14,211 nt of DNA from a virus. The translations under genes were made by a program, and so were the position numbers. Below are positions 4,400-11,676 of this stretch, piece after piece. Location: UHGV virus genome UHGV-0117243, one strand, 5' to 3'. Every line of letters starts with the position of its first letter. Position 1 is the first letter of the stretch. The notes under the pieces are model-generated. The model saw only the letters and a list, made by a program, of their open reading frames with translations, searched no databases and was not told the origin of the DNA.

Positions 4400-6526
4400 T
4401 TAACTCGGCATTAAGTCTGCCGGTGACTGTGGTGGTGACTGGAATTGCTGTTGTTGTGACTCGGCGACATCTTTCAGAAGGCGTATTGCCTCCATCACTG
4501 CTTTGTCATCGATGTTTCTGGCTTGAGCCAGTTTATAGACAGTGTTTGCCTGACTCTCCATCGCATCCTGCTGGGCAGTAAATGCTTTGATTTGAGTTTG
4601 AGCGGTTTCGTTAGTTGCTTTTTGCGCTTCTGCCTGCGCTGCTACCATTTGCGCCTGAGCGAGAACCATTTCAGGATTTGGCTGGCTTTGTGCTGCCATT
4701 TGCGCCTGTTGAACAATCTGCTGCTCTTTCTCATTGCGTGGTTTTGCAATACCAGATATCAGCAGTTGGTTTCGGTTGTACTCTTTGAAGTCATCAAGGC
4801 CTTCGCCATCGATATTGTCCAGAATAATACCCTGAATTGCCGGGCGCATTGGGTCTGTTGGAAGCATAGAGCTAAGGACATTTGTCAGTACAGAAACCGT
4901 TGCATCACGTCGTGCTGTGTAGCTTGGTCCAACATCAACCGTCACATCGTATCGACCGACAGAAAGGTCATTTAACGCAACAACAGCCCCTGTTTGCCTG
5001 TCAACAACCTGTGCGCTCAGGACAGCGATATCATCACTTCCATCTTCGTTAACGATGCGCACTTCACGTTCTGAACCGTACACTTCACGCGCCATTGACA
5101 GCCATACTTCACCAGCGCGTTTAAGACTTTTCGCCATATTGTCCAGATAGATAAACGAAGCCATATCTGCTCTGTTCATCAAGTTGTTAACCGTTTCCTG
5201 AGCAATATTACTTGGCATCTGCTGCATGGCCTGACTGCCGCCTGTAACCTCCTGAATATCTGCACTGGTTTGCTGTAGTAATGCAGCCAATGCCTGATTC
5301 ATAACCGCAGGCTGTGTATATCCTGCCGGGGTAGCTCCAGCGATAATGTTGCCAGATTTATCTCTCACTTCGCGCAACGGCAAGAACGCTGGGCGTTTCT
5401 TGTTGCGAGCCTCCCAGTGCTTCTCAAGTCCACGAATTTGCTCCATGCCAACTATAGGGATCTGACCGGGGTCTTGCGCTGCAGTATCAGCCAGCATTGA
5501 AACCTGAAGGTTGTACAAACGCTGTGGATCCATTGCTTTTGCAATGTGCCCTTCGACACGCTCAATGTCATCAATGAACCAGCGTTTTCCATAAACCGGG
5601 ATGAGGGGGATATGCTCACCAGGAATACGTCGAGGTTTCTCAAGGAAACCATCACCATCCACTACGGATACATACACACGACGGCGCTTCACTGAGCGCC
5701 TTGCCACTTCCTGAAATCCAGATATTGCCAGTTCATCTTCAATATCTTCAACCTGATCACTGTCGTATGTTGCAATCTCTCCAGTGATTGGATGTCGATA
5801 ACTGATGACGTCAACAGACTCTTTACGAACTTCGTAATACTTCGCTATGTAAATAACATCTGCATCAAACCAGTCATATTCCCAACTGGTCATAGACGTT
5901 ACATCCAGAGAAGCAGGAGGTTTCTTTCCGTATTCAGCCTCATATTTTTCAGGTGACAACGAATACATGCAGAACGCCCACAACGCGTCAGATTTGTCGT
6001 ACTTCTTAGCGTCAGGGTCAAACCACACAGAGCGCGACGGGTCGTATATTGGTTCAATAGCAATGCGCTGACGATCGTCCATGGGGTCGTATTCATTGAC
6101 CAGCATCGACGTCAAACGGAAGCAACCGAAACCACCAGTAGCAGCGTCGTCAAATGCATTATCGCAAGCCTCACCGCCATCAGTTTCTTCGTAGTCAGCA
6201 CGGAACAGACCATTTAATTTATTGGCTAACTCTTCGCTTGCCTCTCTGTCACCAGGACGAAACTTAACGGTGATTCTGTTATTGCGGTATTCTGCAATGA
6301 TGCGGTTAAGTTCAGTTGCTACCTTATTGATTTCAAACTTAGGATACTTCTCGAACTGCTCATCAAGCTTAGTCCCAGCCGCCGTTGCTCCTTCCCATTG
6401 ACCTCCGGGGACACGAGCAAACCTCGTAGCTTCAATGCACTTTTCGCGCACTTCCTGCTGTGGAGAATAGGCGCGGTCAAACCTGAGCATGATCCGCTCA
6501 TGTTTTTTCTCTAATGTCTCTGCCAT
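4400..6526 (-). CDS. Portal protein, P22/Sf6 portal family (708 aa from Met25 of the 732-aa ORF)
   Basis: Contains the motif GEHIPLIPVYG resembling P22 portal GEHIPIVPVFG. Long Q/A-rich helical C-terminus typical of the P22-type portal barrel. Start chosen at MAETLEKK.. (6526), 2 nt after the TerL stop, giving 708 aa; the longer ORF start would overlap TerL by 70 nt. Confidence 0.85.
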   Translation of the reverse strand: MAETLEKKHERIMLRFDRAYSPQQEVREKCIEATRFARVPGGQWEGATAAGTKLDEQFEKYPKFEINKVATELNRIIAEYRNNRITVKFRPGDREASEELANKLNGLFRADYEETDGGEACDNAFDDAATGGFGCFRLTSMLVNEYDPMDDRQRIAIEPIYDPSRSVWFDPDAKKYDKSDALWAFCMYSLSPEKYEAEYGKKPPASLDVTSMTSWEYDWFDADVIYIAKYYEVRKESVDVISYRHPITGEIATYDSDQVEDIEDELAISGFQEVARRSVKRRRVYVSVVDGDGFLEKPRRIPGEHIPLIPVYGKRWFIDDIERVEGHIAKAMDPQRLYNLQVSMLADTAAQDPGQIPIVGMEQIRGLEKHWEARNKKRPAFLPLREVRDKSGNIIAGATPAGYTQPAVMNQALAALLQQTSADIQEVTGGSQAMQQMPSNIAQETVNNLMNRADMASFIYLDNMAKSLKRAGEVWLSMAREVYGSEREVRIVNEDGSDDIAVLSAQVVDRQTGAVVALNDLSVGRYDVTVDVGPSYTARRDATVSVLTNVLSSMLPTDPMRPAIQGIILDNIDGEGLDDFKEYNRNQLLISGIAKPRNEKEQQIVQQAQMAAQSQPNPEMVLAQAQMVAAQAEAQKATNETAQTQIKAFTAQQDAMESQANTVYKLAQARNIDDKAVMEAIRLLKDVAESQQQQFQSPPQSPADLMPS

Positions 6527-6528
6527 GT

Positions 6529-7941
6529 TTACCAACCGGAGGATGAGGGAACGTATATTTCTGTTTCTTCGCGGACCAATGCCGGGCAATGCATACACAT
6601 CATCAGCGCATCAGCCAGGTTAGGAGATGGAATACCGAGCTTCTGCTTCATTTCGACCTTAGTCATAAGCTCCAGCTTCCCGTTATTATTGAATTTGCGC
6701 TGAATCTGCGTCAGTTCTGCAAACAGCTTCTCCAGCATCTTCTCGCCTATCGCTTCTTTGTCGAAACTCAGCATGTCGTCTGGGTCTGCATACTCACCGT
6801 GAACAACCGCCCGATATGTCAGATACAGCCTGTCAGCCAGCGCGTAATAGAATTGTGCTCGCTTATTGCGGAACACATCGCCAATAGTGCGAACGTTGTC
6901 ACCCTGTACGACTTCATCAGCCCATGCTCCGGCCTGATACGGCGCATCTTCATCGAATGGCGATTCGCTGCCCTTGAACATCGTGGCGGTGATTTTCTTG
7001 CCGGAGAACGCTTCCGTTGTCTGTCTGCGTAGGCCCGCACCGACGCCATCACCATCCCACAGGTAATGGTCAGCGCCGTCTTCAATTGCCAGCGAAGTAG
7101 CCCAGTCAGCACCCTCGTTGATGTCCATCAGCAGACCTTCGGCAATGCGCTTAACTACCGAACCGTGACGCGATGCATAACCTTTAGCATCTGGCCCTGT
7201 ATCTGATGGGTCATGCGCAGAGACAACAGCGCCTTTCGCTTTCCATCCGAGTTTCTTGTGCGCATCGGTTGCGGCTTCAAGCCATTCACGTTTGATGATT
7301 GCCATATCACTTGCGCTTACTGGCTCACCAAGCCAGATGTGACGATACAGTGTCGGGTTTCTGCGTTTACACTCTTCCATCTCCAGACGGAGGACTTCAG
7401 GAAAATGCGGGTTGTCGGTGTAGTTCACCGTCAGCAGGCAAATATCATCGGGAGGATTTACGACGAATCGCTGATAGGTATCGTCGAGGATGTTTTTCGG
7501 GTTGAAACTTACCCATATTTCAGAGAACGGCTTACGGATGGTTGGAATCAGGATATCCCACGATTCCTTCGTTACCGCTTCCGCTTCTTCCACCCAGCAG
7601 ATATCAATGCCTTCGAGCGATTTAATCTTCGTCGGGTTGTTTTTGATGCCGTAGAACATGAATTCAGCATTCGTTCCGAGATGACGAATCATGGAACGCT
7701 GAATTTCAAACTCAGCCGAATACCCTTCACGCTCGATGGTATCTTCAAGCAACCGGATTACCGAATCGCTGATACTGTTTTGCAGTTCACGAGCGCAGAG
7801 AATACGCACTGGCTGCCGACGCGCCGCTTCAACAAGCAGCCTCGCAATTGCCCATGACTTACCGCTACCTCGACCGCCTTTGGCGACTTTGTAGCGATGC
7901 GCCTCAATGAACGGTTCAAAGATAGGATTAATCGAGGTCAT
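6529..7941 (-). CDS. terL: Terminase large subunit (470 aa)
   Basis: Walker A motif VAKGGRGSGKS near the N-terminus, 470 aa, overlaps the terS stop (ATGA), directly upstream of portal. Confidence 0.9.
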   Translation of the reverse strand: MTSINPIFEPFIEAHRYKVAKGGRGSGKSWAIARLLVEAARRQPVRILCARELQNSISDSVIRLLEDTIEREGYSAEFEIQRSMIRHLGTNAEFMFYGIKNNPTKIKSLEGIDICWVEEAEAVTKESWDILIPTIRKPFSEIWVSFNPKNILDDTYQRFVVNPPDDICLLTVNYTDNPHFPEVLRLEMEECKRRNPTLYRHIWLGEPVSASDMAIIKREWLEAATDAHKKLGWKAKGAVVSAHDPSDTGPDAKGYASRHGSVVKRIAEGLLMDINEGADWATSLAIEDGADHYLWDGDGVGAGLRRQTTEAFSGKKITATMFKGSESPFDEDAPYQAGAWADEVVQGDNVRTIGDVFRNKRAQFYYALADRLYLTYRAVVHGEYADPDDMLSFDKEAIGEKMLEKLFAELTQIQRKFNNNGKLELMTKVEMKQKLGIPSPNLADALMMCMHCPALVREETEIYVPSSSGW

Positions 7942-8465
7942 TTTCCGAATAGAGTGCTCATCGGTGATGTTTCAATCTGGATTGCGCCGCCGTCTTTGCC
8001 TGTTAGTTCGTGAGAAGCTTGTTCTTTAAACGCCTGAACAGAAACATGCTTACCAAGAAGTTCGAGGTTTTTAACCTTATCAGGCCATTTGATTTTCTTC
8101 AGGAGTGCGGCGCTATCTGCGGATGCCATCTCCACGACATCCATTCCTGATAACGTTGTGCGCCATACCTTAGGCCAGTCTTTAATGGGTTTTAGCTCAC
8201 CGTTTTGCAGGAGAATGTCAAGCACATCCATCTGGTCGATTTCAATAAGGCGATTAAGTACATATTCTGCATTAATACCAACAAGATCATTGCGTTGTGC
8301 TTTCAGTTCGGCGATTCTGAGTTGTATGTCAGGTTTTGACATGTTTTCGGACGCAGTACGGTTGGCTGTTTTTGCGCTGTACCCCGCCCGAATAGCCGCT
8401 TGCGTGGCGTTTAAATCGATGAGGTACTCGCGACAGAACATTTCTTGCTTGTCGGTGAGTGCCAT
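7938..8465 (-). CDS. terS: Terminase small subunit (175 aa)
   Basis: N-terminus MALTDKQEMFCREYLIDLNATQAAIRAGYS is a typical phage small-terminase HTH region. Translationally coupled to terL. RBS AAAGGTAA. Confidence 0.8.
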   Translation of the reverse strand: MALTDKQEMFCREYLIDLNATQAAIRAGYSAKTANRTASENMSKPDIQLRIAELKAQRNDLVGINAEYVLNRLIEIDQMDVLDILLQNGELKPIKDWPKVWRTTLSGMDVVEMASADSAALLKKIKWPDKVKNLELLGKHVSVQAFKEQASHELTGKDGGAIQIETSPMSTLFGK

Positions 8466-8489
8466 TTAATTACCTTTGGGAGATGCCCA

Positions 8490-9023
8490 ATGAGTTTAGA
8501 AAAATTACTAATCAAAAACAGAAAGTGCGGTTCATGCTCTGTGTGCTGCACTTCGCTACGAATTGAACAGCCAACGTTAAAAAAGTTGGCTGACATCCCA
8601 TGCCAGCACCTTAAACATCAGGGAGGATGTGCAATTTATGATGAACGCCCTTCTGTTTGCCGCACTTGGTATTGCGGATGGCGAATTCTGGATATAGGAC
8701 CAGAGATGCGTCCTGATCGGAGTGGAGTTCTAATCCGTTATGATGGATCATCACTCTGCTTTCAACCCGTAGACAAAAACCGCGTATCTGCTTTGATCGA
8801 ACCAGAGCCTCTGCGAATTTTGGGTGGCCTGATAGATCAAGGTATGAAAGTGGAAATATCGGTTCCAACAAAGGAAGGGTATTGCTCAGCCAATATTAAT
8901 GTCACTGAGCATATGTCAGAGGTTGTAAAAAGCAGAGAGTATGTAAAAATGCGTTCGGCTCTTTTGGCGCTCATTCAATTCGCATCACGAGCAAAGACAG
9001 ATCCAGTAGAACCGCTGGAATGA
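8490..9023 (+). CDS. YkgJ/UPF0153-family cysteine-cluster protein (CxxCxxCC putative Zn/Fe-binding domain), 177 aa; accessory (moron) gene on the opposite strand
   Basis: Motif CGSCSVCC followed by ..PCQHL..GGCAIYDERPSVCRTWYCGW.., characteristic of the CxxCxxCC family. RBS GGGAGA 7 nt before ATG at 8490. Own rho-independent terminator immediately downstream. Start chosen at MSLEKL rather than the upstream Met, which would overlap terS. Confidence 0.65.
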   Translation: MSLEKLLIKNRKCGSCSVCCTSLRIEQPTLKKLADIPCQHLKHQGGCAIYDERPSVCRTWYCGWRILDIGPEMRPDRSGVLIRYDGSSLCFQPVDKNRVSALIEPEPLRILGGLIDQGMKVEISVPTKEGYCSANINVTEHMSEVVKSREYVKMRSALLALIQFASRAKTDPVEPLE

Positions 9024-9031
9024 TTATTCAG

Positions 9032-9055
9032 GTCGGGTTTAACACCCGGCTTTTT
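9032..9055 (+). terminator. Rho-independent terminator of the YkgJ-like gene
   Basis: 7-bp stem (gtcgggt / acccggc) with 5-nt loop followed by TTTTT on the plus strand, 9 nt after the stop codon. Not followed by a T-run on the minus strand, so unidirectional. Confidence 0.7.
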
Positions 9056-9298
9056 GAAATGGTACTCATTGCATCGCTTAATTTTCTTTAAATGAGAAAC
9101 GTCCTCTTTCTTAACTGAAGACATTAATTCTTTATCAGTTCGAACATTCATTTTTTTCCATTGCATGATCTTCGCTAATTTATAATTTGCAGTTCTTCTG
9201 CAACGATTTGTTATGTGATAGAATATCTCTCTTCGTTTGGCGGTCCATTACTTCAATATCGTGATCATTAAGGTATAGGCTTTGTAATGCCTACATGG

Positions 9299-9778
9299 TT
9301 AAATGATTTGCCAGTCTTCAGCCATCAGGTCGCCAATGGATGGAGCCCATGTAGCAAGGCGGTTCTGTGAGTTTTTCAATACAAGCGTGTCATTGAAAGT
9401 TGGCTCGCCAACATATTCGCCAAAGCCATAACCCAACGCAGACGCTAATTTTTCTCCTTTCACGAGATAAACAAACTGATCTTTCCCATTCCATCCTGCC
9501 CGCTGCAAACTTTTGCCCTGTTTTAACGCTTCCATGGCAAGGCCGAAACTTAGCCCTGATACCGGACGATAAGCCTTTTCGAATACTTCTTTTGGACTCC
9601 AGCTAACGTAGCCATCAAAGCGATCGGTGTTAGGTTTTCCGCCATCCAGATATTCAACCAGATAGCCTTCGTCCTCGCCGTTTTCTCCGGCAGGAAGCTG
9701 CCAGCCACGAAAATCGTTATATGCCTGTCTCGTCATCGGAAAGGCGTTAATCAGTTTTACGCCAATATGTTGGGTCAT
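9299..9778 (-). CDS. Hypothetical two-domain protein (160 aa) with C-terminal DUF2829-like domain
   Basis: C-terminal half ..AMEALKQGKSLQRAGWNGKDQFV..LATWAPSIGDLMAEDWQII fits the DUF2829 pattern as recalled (..GWNGK.. and ..AEDW.. motifs). N-terminal half unrecognised. Start set at Met42 of the 200-aa ORF because the upstream codons run through a terminator hairpin. RBS weak (AGGT). Confidence 0.55.
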   Translation of the reverse strand: MTQHIGVKLINAFPMTRQAYNDFRGWQLPAGENGEDEGYLVEYLDGGKPNTDRFDGYVSWSPKEVFEKAYRPVSGLSFGLAMEALKQGKSLQRAGWNGKDQFVYLVKGEKLASALGYGFGEYVGEPTFNDTLVLKNSQNRLATWAPSIGDLMAEDWQII

Positions 9779-9800
9779 AAAATTACCTATGGAGTTGGGA

Positions 9801-9825
9801 ATAAAAAAACCCCGCGAATGCGAGG
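9801..9825 (-). terminator. Rho-independent terminator between Rz and the DUF2829-like gene
   Basis: On the minus-strand transcript: cctcgc-attc-gcgggg hairpin (6 bp including one G-U pair) followed by UUUUUUUAUU. On the plus strand the same stem carries a C-A mismatch and is preceded, not followed, by the A/T run, so it is strand-specific. Confidence 0.65.
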
Positions 9826-10000
9826 CTAAATCCTGGTGTTTGTGATGACTGGCTCTTATCTCAACGCAGCCCCTTACCGCGCGCCAGATGCTCAATATCA
9901 AGCATCAGCAATGAGATGTTTAATCTGGATTCACTCCAGAAGTGATCACCACCCTGTCTACAGAGCCAGATGTGAAGGATGATGAGTAGAATTATCGCTA

Positions 10001-10438
10001 TCATCGAAGGCATTGCGTCCTGATGTATTCCTGCAGGTAGTTAACCTGCGCGGTTATCCTGTCGATTCCGCTTCGGAGACGGTAATAATTAAGTTCAGCA
10101 TCTGCTGTAAGTCTTGGGCTTTCTCCATCGCCCATGCTGCTGGCTCCGGTCGTTGACTTTGCACAGGTGGCGGCGACTTGCAGGCGCTTACGACCAGCAG
10201 AAACATCAGCACGGAGACTTTCAATAGTCGCGTTAGCATCAGCAAGCTCCTTTGTGTATCTGGCGTCGAGTTCTGCTACGTCACGTTGACGCTTCTGCAT
10301 ATCAGCGATGATGGATGTGGCTTTATCTCGCTGTTCTTTGTAGGCGATGGCGTTATCACGGTAATGATTAACAGCCCATGACAGGCAAACGATGATGCAA
10401 ATAACCAGAGCGGAGATAATCGCGGTTACTCTGCTCAT
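10001..10438 (-). CDS. Rz: Rz spanin (inner-membrane subunit, i-spanin), 145 aa
   Basis: N-terminus [31 protein letters not shown] matches lambda Rz; the C-terminal half diverges. Start overlaps the R stop. Confidence 0.8.
10054..10245 (-). CDS. Rz1: Rz1 o-spanin lipoprotein embedded in the +1 frame of Rz
   Basis: ORF nested wholly inside Rz in another frame. Hydrophobic leader ending in a lipobox-like VSAC, then a Pro-rich segment ([12 protein letters not shown]), as in lambda Rz1. Exact start uncertain. Confidence 0.6.
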
Positions 10439-10911
10439 ACCTCAATCTCTCTGACCGTTCCGCCAGCCTCTTTGAATTTTGCAATCAGGCTGTCAGCCTT
10501 ATGCTCGAACTGACCATAACCAGCGCCAGGCAGTGAAGCCCAGATATTGCTGCAACGGTCGATAGCCTGACGAATATCACCGCGATCAATCATCGGTAAA
10601 GCGCCACGCTCTTTAATCTGCTGTAGTGCAACAGCGTCCTGGCTTTTCGGAGAGAAGTCTTTCAGCCCAAGCTGCTTACGGTATGCATCCCACCAACGGG
10701 AAAGAAGCTGGTAACGTCCGGCTGCTGTTGATTTGAGTTTGGGGTTTAGCGTGACAAGTTTGCGAGGGTGATCTGAGTAATCAGTGAATAGCTCTCCGCC
10801 TACAATGACGTCATAACCATGATTTCTGGTTTTCTGCCGTCCGTTATCAGTTCCCTCTGACCACGCCAGCATATCGAGGAACGCCTTACGTTGATTATTG
10901 ATTTCCACCAT
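10435..10911 (-). CDS. R: Endolysin, lambda R-type lytic transglycosylase (158 aa)
   Basis: Translation [39 protein letters not shown].. is collinear with lambda R over the full 158 aa (from memory). Overlaps the S stop as in lambda. Confidence 0.95.
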
Positions 10912-11218
10912 CTTCTACTCCGGCTTTTTTAGCAGCGAAGCGTTTGATAAGCGAACCAATCGAGTCAGTACCGATGTAGCCGATGAACACGCTCGTTATA
11001 TAAGCGAGATTGCTACTTAGTCCGGCGAAGTCGAGAAGGTCACGAATGAACCAGGCGATAATGGCGCACATCGTTGCGTCGATTACTGTTTTTGTAAACG
11101 CACCGCCATTATATCTGCCGCGAAGGTACGCCATTGCAAACGCAAGGATTGCCCCGATGCCTTGTTCCTTTGCCGCGAGAATGGCGGCTAACAGGTCATG
11201 TTTTTCTGGCATCTTCAT
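10895..11218 (-). CDS. S: Holin/antiholin, lambda S (S107/S105 dual-start), 107 aa
   Basis: [34 protein letters not shown].. matches lambda S, including the Met1-Lys2-Met3 dual-start motif. Confidence 0.95.
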
Positions 11219-11460
11219 GTCTTACCCCCAATAAGGGGATTTGCTCTATTTAATTAGGAATAAGGTCGATTACTGATAGAACAAATCCAGGCTACTGTGT
11301 TTAGTAATCAGATTTGTTCGTGACCGATATGCACGGGCAAAACGGCAGGAGGTTGTTAGCGCAACTTCTTGCCACCCGCTTTCACGAAGGTCATGTGTAG
11401 AAGGCCGCAGCGTAACTATCACTGATGAATTCAGGATAGCCAGTGGCTACGGCTCAGTTA

Positions 11461-11536
11461 TGGTGCTGGTTAACGGACTTGAACCGCTACCCATTCGCTT
11501 ACAAGGCGACTGCTCTACCATTGGAGCTAAACCAGC
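11461..11536 (-). tRNA. tRNA-Thr (anticodon UGU), 76 nt with encoded CCA
   Basis: Manual fold of the minus-strand sequence: perfect 7-bp acceptor stem (gctggtt/aaccagc), 4-bp D stem with GG in the loop, anticodon loop cuUGUaa, 5-nt variable loop, T arm agcgg-TTCAAGT-ccgtt, discriminator A, CCA. One mismatch at the base of the anticodon stem. Confidence 0.65.
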
Positions 11537-11541
11537 ATATT

Positions 11542-11616
11542 TGGCGGGACAGCGTGGACTCGAACCACGATAAGAAGGTTAACAGCCTTCCGTAATGACC
11601 TTTATACGACTGACCC
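11542..11616 (-). tRNA. tRNA-Asn-like (anticodon GUU), 75 nt with encoded CCA; possibly partly degenerate
   Basis: Anticodon stem-loop gaagg-CUGUUAA-ccttc and T arm cgtgg-TTCGAGT-ccacg resemble E. coli tRNA-Asn. The acceptor stem has a T-T mismatch at pair 4 and the D stem has only 3 pairs. Begins 3 nt after the tR' U-run. Confidence 0.5.
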
Positions 11617-11618
11617 AA

Positions 11619-11676
11619 ATAAAAAATCCCGAAACCGTTATGCAGGCTCTAACTATTACCTGCGAACTGTTTCGGG
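11619..11676 (-). terminator. tR' terminator (end of the lambda-type 6S late leader transcript)
   Basis: Minus strand reads cccgaaacagttcgcaggtaatagttagagcctgcataacggtttcggg + auuuuuuau, collinear with lambda tR' as recalled, about 194 nt downstream of the pR' start. Confidence 0.8.

Follow-up and report, generated by a model that had tools for sequence, protein, structure and literature searches.

UHGV virus genome UHGV-0117243 is studied here through a single stretch of 14,211 nucleotides, which is called the window. The window is the minus-strand late region of a P22-like (Lederbergvirus-type) Escherichia coli prophage. The sole convincing plus-strand gene of this late-region stretch lies between the lysis cassette and the terminase genes, and encodes a YkgJ-like protein with eight cysteines. 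This gene is probably a moron, that is, an accessory gene acquired horizontally into the variable region between lysis and terminase genes, expressed from the lysogen and coding for a metal-binding product. Its main features are as follows.

8490..9023, plus strand: gene for the YkgJ-like eight-cysteine protein, 177 amino acids plus stop (translation, PGAP coding sequence, homologues)
8478-8483, plus strand: Shine-Dalgarno (SD) sequence GGGAGA of this gene, 6 nt 5' of the ATG; GGAGAT or GGAAGAT in relatives of the cassette
9031-9055, plus strand: intrinsic-terminator-like hairpin followed by T5 (RNA fold)
8477-9240, plus strand: mobile cassette of ~760 bp (blastn, 91% nucleotide identity to lambdoid prophages with other terminase types)

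The open reading frame (ORF) begins with the ATG at 8490 and ends with the TGA at 9021-9023. The start codon of terS is the complement of 8463-8465, which leaves an intergenic gap of only 24 bp (8466-8489). In this gap the SD sequences of the two genes stand back to back, with AAAGG of terS (complement of 8474-8478) adjoining GGGAGA of the YkgJ-like gene. PGAP calls the same coding sequence with the same start in five complete E. coli genomes, including SCU-124 (WP_001525208.1, "YkgJ family cysteine cluster protein"), and the homologues all start at the same aligned methionine. The first-pass annotation of the window had placed the start at 8490, 24 bp from that of terS, with GGGAGA as ribosome-binding site, and both the sequence and the PGAP call bear this out.

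Evidence that the ORF encodes a protein can be found in its 57 homologues, which range from 94% down to 24-30% identity and are nearly all 175-200 amino acids long. In an alignment of 34 homologues (24-94% identity), the eight cysteines C13, C16, C19, C20, C38, C47, C57, and C62 are all kept, being invariant or nearly so. The family signatures CRTWYCGWR and RPDRSGVL are kept as well, and D76 is the sole invariant acidic residue. Compared with the copies from Citrobacter and from a metagenome (91% DNA identity), the ratio of nonsynonymous to synonymous substitution rates (dN/dS) is 0.13, at a dS of 0.24. Taken together, these comparisons indicate a real gene under purifying selection. The first-pass annotation had named it a cysteine-cluster gene, in agreement with the conserved motifs, the low dN/dS, and the RefSeq family name.

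AlphaFold2 predicts two domains with a predicted local distance difference test score (pLDDT) of 92. The N-terminal domain carries the eight cysteines (approximately residues 10-65) and is followed by an alpha/beta domain. A search with the family profile in a database of 1.84 billion representatives returned 234 clusters (representatives at 50% identity) at E <= 1e-30, all of 170-200 amino acids, and 4,745 at E <= 1e-10. Judged from these sequences, the two-domain architecture marks a sizeable uncharacterised family.

The cysteine pattern is of the YkgJ/UPF0153 type, CxxCxxCC ... C ... C-x-IY-x-x-RP-x-x-CR-x-x-x-C. Two YkgJ-type motifs, C13-x2-C16-x2-C19-C20 and C47-A-I-Y-D-E-R-P-S-V-C57-R, are kept in the 34 homologues and can be aligned to E. 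coli YkgJ. The protein therefore shares with YkgJ and PF03692 (UPF0153, putative zinc- or iron-chelating domain) the N-terminal CxxCxxCC and the later C-x-IY-x-x-R-x-x-x-CR. E. coli K-12 YkgJ differs from it in being 109 amino acids long and in lacking the additional conserved C-terminal domain of ~100 amino acids, together with YCGWR and RPDRSGVL. Because the match to PF03692 (E 5e-4) scores 21.1 bits, below the gathering score of 23 bits, and the hhalign match to K-12 YkgJ has a probability of 43% over 16 columns, the protein is taken to be related to the YkgJ group, though divergent and longer, rather than a bona fide member of it. Assignment to the YkgJ-type family thus holds for the motifs and for the family name given by PGAP, whereas the Pfam score stays under the threshold.

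The gene is carried by few relatives of the window. Only five of 5,426 complete E. coli genomes have it, and it is missing from related P22-like phages. Among the 202 E. coli genomes that match window 8380-9100, mostly through the 5' end of terS, 197 lack the gene. The 50,697 GenBank phage records contain no close relatives, only matches of 30-40% identity in cyanophages and a Rhizobium phage. Strains with an intact gene come from humans, marsupials, and chickens. SCU-124, A42, and MS1657 are lysogens that carry the identical prophage.

In blastn comparisons with the prophage loci of Citrobacter (L003) and of the metagenome (L005), homology extends from 8480 or 8477, respectively, to 9240, and its borders are sharp. 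It is as this cassette that the gene travels among the lambdoid phages of Enterobacterales. The base composition differs little from the surroundings: the G+C content is 44.4% for the gene, 41.6% for the cassette, 48.1% for the window, and 46-51% for the neighbours.

All enterobacterial homologues examined (38-94% identity) occupy the region that separates the lysis cassette from the terminase genes, and are read against the late operon. Among their sources are Citrobacter, Rahnella, and Providencia, as well as several metagenomic contigs, and four terminase types are represented: HK97-like TerL with HNH, lambda Nu1, Terminase_2, and P22-like. In IMG/VR, 28 of the 29 contigs with a homologue of at least 42% identity have most flanking ORFs on the other strand. 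More distant homologues (30-35% identity) are found in chromosomal, non-phage contexts, and for this reason phages appear, from sequence, to have captured a cellular gene. These chromosomal copies adjoin genes for hydantoinase-type or AMP-binding enzymes; no neighbour is shared among the three chromosomal loci.

A 41.7-kb circular "plasmid" of Shigella flexneri (L002, NZ_CP012733.1) is 99% identical to window 8023-11626. By its sequence it is probably the genome of the window phage, deposited as a plasmid.

A similar layout can be found in phage lambda. Like the YkgJ-like gene, lambda bor (with the neighbouring lambdap78) follows the lysis cassette, precedes the terminase genes and cos, and is opposed to the late operon. 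It is likewise a small dispensable gene, in whose place relatives hold other genes or nothing. The layout in the window is thus the classical moron position of bor and not an oddity. There are two differences: Bor is an outer-membrane lipoprotein, unrelated to the YkgJ-like protein, and the window gene lies so close to the terS start codon (24 bp) that no intergenic room is left for a promoter of its own. The product of lambdap78, which has the same length (177 amino acids) and position, was considered as a homologue and shows no similarity.

Morons, in the sense of Juhala and Hendrix, are recognized by their absence from related phages, their own promoter and terminator, a differing composition, and expression from the repressed prophage (Cumby et al. 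2012, PMC3594210). Two of these properties are found in the window: absence from otherwise related phages, and a terminator.

The terminator is formed by GGTCGGGT/ACCCGGCT, which pair over 8 bp (G·U pairs counted) around a loop of 5 nt, with T5 after the hairpin. Its folding free energy is -13.2 kcal/mol (z = -3.1), and none of 200 shuffled sequences folds equally well. On the minus strand, the same positions give only a 5-bp stem with no U run after it, so the terminator serves the plus strand alone. The strand-specific terminator of the first-pass annotation, placed there at 9032-9055, is in this way recovered at 9031-9055; the consensus scan tool did not list it. The hairpin is kept in L003 and L005, where the T run is degraded, and homologues in two other loci (L007 and L014) have independent strong terminators downstream.

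A promoter is harder to find. The gap measures 24 bp, and upstream of it structural genes run antisense for more than 8 kb. A promoter belonging to the gene must therefore overlap the terS coding sequence, as had been pointed out before. The -10 element proposed for it is the following.

8465-8470, plus strand: -10-like TTTAAT, overlapping the T of the terS start codon and the spacer between the SD and ATG of terS; unsupported as a promoter

TTTAAT matches five of the six -10 positions, and its -35 partners at spacers of 17-18 nt match only 2/6. TTGCTT (8445-8450) is just 14 nt away. In a rough position weight matrix (PWM), TTTAAT scores ~7 bits, and 70 plus-strand sites in the 14-kb window score equally, so that the element is present at chance level.

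The consensus promoter scan gave no plus-strand promoter in 7800-9500, and no sigma-54, sigma-32, sigma-28, or sigma-E pattern was seen by eye. A positional scan of 38 loci of the same arrangement brought up a recurrent TTG(T/C)TT-16/17-T(T/A)TA(T/A)T in about a dozen relatives. As a promoter it was rejected: terS coding and the AT-rich stretch between the SD and ATG of terS account for both halves, and the -35 to -10 spacer in the window is only 14 nt.

Relatives of the gene show what its promoter may have looked like. A conserved pair of motifs occurs in 20 of 35 distinct other upstream regions, at protein identities of 38-95%. It consists of a palindrome-like ATCAGGAT box (CTGAT-N5-ATCAG or CTGTG-N5-ATCAG) and, 20-22 nt further on, a -10-like TATAAAGT or TATTGT. 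The pair is located 45-65 nt 5' of the ATG, and the sequence between the motifs is unconserved. Examples are L003 5920-5965, L005 2548-2595, L016 5900-5950, and L018 1065-1110, with 16 more. With its centre ~43 nt 5' of the inferred start of transcription, the box is placed as class II regulator sites are. On sequence grounds, the pair looks like a regulated promoter belonging to the cassette.

The place next to terS is not reserved for the YkgJ-like gene. Two E. coli prophages with the terS 5' end of the window carry other cargo there (L011 2609-3064, L013 2609-2827): plus-strand genes of 151 and 72 amino acids, whose starts are 22 bp away from the ATG of terS. In the alignment, the first codons of this alternative cargo share a column with the YkgJ-like ATG, and homology stops at the start codon.

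The arrangement extends to terS homologues among species-representative genomes (L023-L102, ORFs at locus coordinates about 830-1483). A divergent ORF of at least 50 amino acids, starting 8-44 nt from the terS ATG, is present in 37 of 63 usable loci (59%), compared with 17% of random windows and 11% of shuffled sequence. The 37 ORFs represent 27 unrelated families, and most have an ATG and a good SD sequence. Their Pfam matches include DUF2158 (three ORFs), DUF4145 (two), DUF6173 (one), and a weak HEPN match; one ORF is lipoprotein-like. Judged by these comparisons, the slot is conserved while its occupants are many and interchangeable, the YkgJ-like gene being one of them. Since this slot holds unrelated divergent genes, expression from the terS side is plausible, though unproven. 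In the literature, nothing specific on a cargo slot abutting terS was found. Kapi1, considered as a studied phage with the terS type of the window, has a different terS.

The beginning of terS is itself unusual in its codons.

8415-8435, no strand assigned: core of synonymous-site constraint, terS codons 11-17, within constrained codons 2-30 (8376-8462)

The comparison covers 64 distinct terS genes, drawn from many species of Enterobacterales. Codons 3, 11, 13, 14, and 17 are the same in 59-63 of these genes; TGT, GAG, TAC, and GAT are among the near-invariant codons. Where an alignment column has a conserved amino acid, the normalised entropy of synonymous codons is 0.54 in codons 2-30 and rises to 0.84 in those that follow (Mann-Whitney p = 2e-7). 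The cause of the constraint may be a pac site or a recombination anchor, a promoter or operator, or an element of the mRNA. In P22, pac lies within gene 3, and a pac site explains the constraint here no less well than a promoter does.

A bolder view of these results can be stated, and is a tentative one with low probability. The position upstream of Terminase_2-type terS would be a general, so far undescribed cargo slot of Enterobacterales prophages, in which unrelated genes expressed in the lysogen are swapped at the ribosome-binding site and driven by one promoter in the first ~30 codons of terS; the YkgJ-like protein would then be a new iron-sulfur (Fe-S) immunity or host-modifying factor. 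Such an embedded promoter would explain the synonymous constraint on those codons.

In the lineage of the window phage, recombination at the ribosome-binding site joined the YkgJ-like gene directly to the 5' end of terS, and with this join the gene lost its conserved upstream motif pair. For the moron itself, the following course of events can be proposed. In the lysogen, where the late operon is silent, the gene would be transcribed from a weak or non-canonical promoter in approximately the first 40 terS codons. In the lytic cycle, late transcription antiterminated by Q would cross the gene head-on and antisense, probably silencing it. The first-pass annotation had suggested interference with terS. 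This is speculation, and an effect of any weight is unlikely: a transcript starting near 8477 would overlap terS at its SD sequence only. A collision would mainly hit the YkgJ-like gene, because the late transcript must traverse the whole of it. The cysteines of the product would serve as ligands of a metal centre, for which an Fe-S cluster is most likely by analogy with FliB, and the product may act on host physiology or on incoming phages rather than in virion assembly.

Several observations weigh against an expressed moron of this kind. The YkgJ-like protein has no NCBIfam match, and no PADLOC 2.0 match at E <= 0.1. PF03692 matches 22 of the 34 family members and none above the gathering cutoff (best E 2e-4). 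No convincing sigma-70 promoter was found in 8150-8489 by the consensus scan, the PWM scan of the window, or the positional scan over the slot loci. The constraint on terS codons is seen with or without cargo and hence does not point specifically to a cargo promoter. The motif pair is lacking from the window copy, since homology to the cassette starts only 10-13 nt 5' of the ATG; any promoter must consequently come from the terS side, and the description of the gene as self-contained in the first-pass annotation does not apply to the window. The Shigella copy is frameshifted. Finally, copies of the window lineage are 100% identical, so that selection since the join to terS cannot be measured.

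By its sequence, the window copy could thus be silent, its native upstream motifs gone. The rival readings carry decreasing weight from such a promoterless silent copy to defence cargo and to a modifying enzyme of the lytic cycle. The first of them holds that recombination against terS removed the promoter, leaving an untranscribed passenger that drifts towards loss. The loss of both the ATCAGGAT box and the -10-like box at the join, the lack of any promoter above chance, frameshifted or truncated copies in Shigella and E. coli (P0012, 105 amino acids), and the absence of any sign of selection after the join among the identical intact copies are all in keeping with it. The SD sequence and start codon are nevertheless precisely kept, and the gene is intact in strains from three kinds of host. 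In 59% of the loci, the same junction is also occupied by a divergent gene that is intact and has an SD sequence, with 27 families represented, which is hard to explain if the junction is transcriptionally dead. A silent passenger is therefore rather unlikely, and the expressed moron is preferred.

The variability of the slot can also be read in another way. If it were a hotspot of immunity genes expressed from the prophage, the YkgJ-like gene would be cargo for defence or superinfection exclusion. In favour of this are the hypervariability of the slot and the orientation of its cargo against the late operon; some of the cargo has DUF4145 or weak HEPN matches, and an anti-defence-type (Tad2-like) gene adjoins the cassette. 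PADLOC, however, gives no match for the YkgJ-like protein or for any of 39 proteins encoded by slot cargo, and the distant homologues stand in ordinary chromosomal contexts. The YkgJ-like protein also has no nuclease, nucleoside triphosphatase (NTPase), or other effector motif, with D76 as its only invariant acidic residue. A defence function is accordingly doubtful.

What a moron of this family might do can be considered from two biochemically characterized relatives met in the literature, neither of them a close one. FliB is a flagellin lysine N-methyltransferase, in which the motif CX4CX3CC holds a [4Fe-4S] cluster needed for methylation (PMC8598068). It resembles the window protein in its N-terminal cysteine motif ending in CC and in its eight conserved cysteines, and it is the only such protein with a metal centre determined. 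The comparison is one of motifs only: FliB is much larger, its spacing differs from the CX2CX2CC of the window protein, and the window gene has no flagellar context.

The second protein, DpdM (DUF3109), has been described as homologous to YkgJ and is a methyltransferase for preQ1 in phage DNA (PMC10516641). It is a phage-borne member of the wider cysteine-cluster group, and an example of how such proteins can have a phage role; for the superfamily, the earlier statement that no phage role is known goes too far. The window protein differs in having no DUF3109 match, no genes of the 7-deazaguanine pathway nearby, and an orientation opposite to the lytic genes.

As both FliB and DpdM are methyltransferases, the YkgJ-like protein could be imagined as an Fe-S enzyme, for example a methyltransferase, that modifies DNA or protein during infection and not in the lysogen, and weak homologues do occur in cyanophages and a Rhizobium phage. 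This is quite improbable. The gene is opposed to every lytic unit in all enterobacterial contexts and is dispensable, most related phages lacking it. No dpdA or preQ pathway genes are present in the window, none of the 34 family members matches DUF3109 at E <= 0.1, and the cysteine spacing is not that of FliB.

That the ORF is an antisense artefact without a protein product, as its position opposite an operon and its sub-threshold Pfam score might suggest, is hardly credible and is refuted by the conservation data (dN/dS 0.13, 57 full-length homologues whose cysteines stay invariant down to 24% identity, 234 family clusters at E <= 1e-30), beside the confident structure prediction and the fact that no late-strand gene overlaps it.

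By itself, the expressed moron preferred here adds one more prophage moron to those described. It is an element of an ordinary kind, whose protein belongs to an uncharacterised cysteine-cluster family already named and annotated in RefSeq. The first-pass annotation described it largely accurately; its interpretation is partly supported, and its promoter call is unsupported. The family of ~180 amino acids is widespread (234 clusters at 50% identity), and no studied member was found. The slot and the constraint on terS are more interesting by-products than the gene. They offer an entry point to the question of whether the 5' end of a packaging gene could double as a promoter, or as an exchange anchor, for variable genes expressed from the lysogen. 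If the slot is a hotspot of defence or conversion genes, it would be a convenient source for mining new prophage cargo.

The late operon around the YkgJ-like gene is read on the minus strand in the order antiterminator, holin, endolysin, Rz, DUF2829/Tad2-like gene, terS, terL, portal, scaffold, and capsid. The following genes were located.

10895-11218, minus strand: lambda-type holin
10435-10911, minus strand: endolysin
10001-10438, minus strand: Rz
9299-9901, minus strand: DUF2829/Tad2-like gene (Pfam E 2.4e-21)
7938-8465, minus strand: terS, Terminase_2 type (Pfam Terminase_2 E 3e-39, phrog_51)
6529-7941, minus strand: terL
4400-6598, minus strand: P22-type portal

An Rfam scan of 7900-9950 gave no match at E <= 1. 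A minus-strand ORF of 63 amino acids at 8975-9166, which covers the 3' end of the YkgJ-like gene and the terminator, was considered as a convergent partner gene and rejected. Its omega of 0.54-0.65 lies in the range of off-frame controls, its first ATG is deleted by a 1-nt indel in L003 and L005, and PGAP does not call it. ORFs are found at a similar position in five other loci.

DNA homologous to 9299-9901 is annotated "anti-CRISPR protein" in phages Huey and Louie; Tad2 stands for Thoeris anti-defence 2. Between this gene and the YkgJ-like gene, window 9189-9283 is 79-82% similar to DNA at or adjoining the 3' ends of spanin genes (annotated as Rz-like spanin or O-spanin) of other lambdoid phages, including mEp390 and HK639. 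The segment is unrelated to the Rz of the window, and its sequence looks like a relic of a donor phage, brought in with the cassette, whose shared part stops at 9240.

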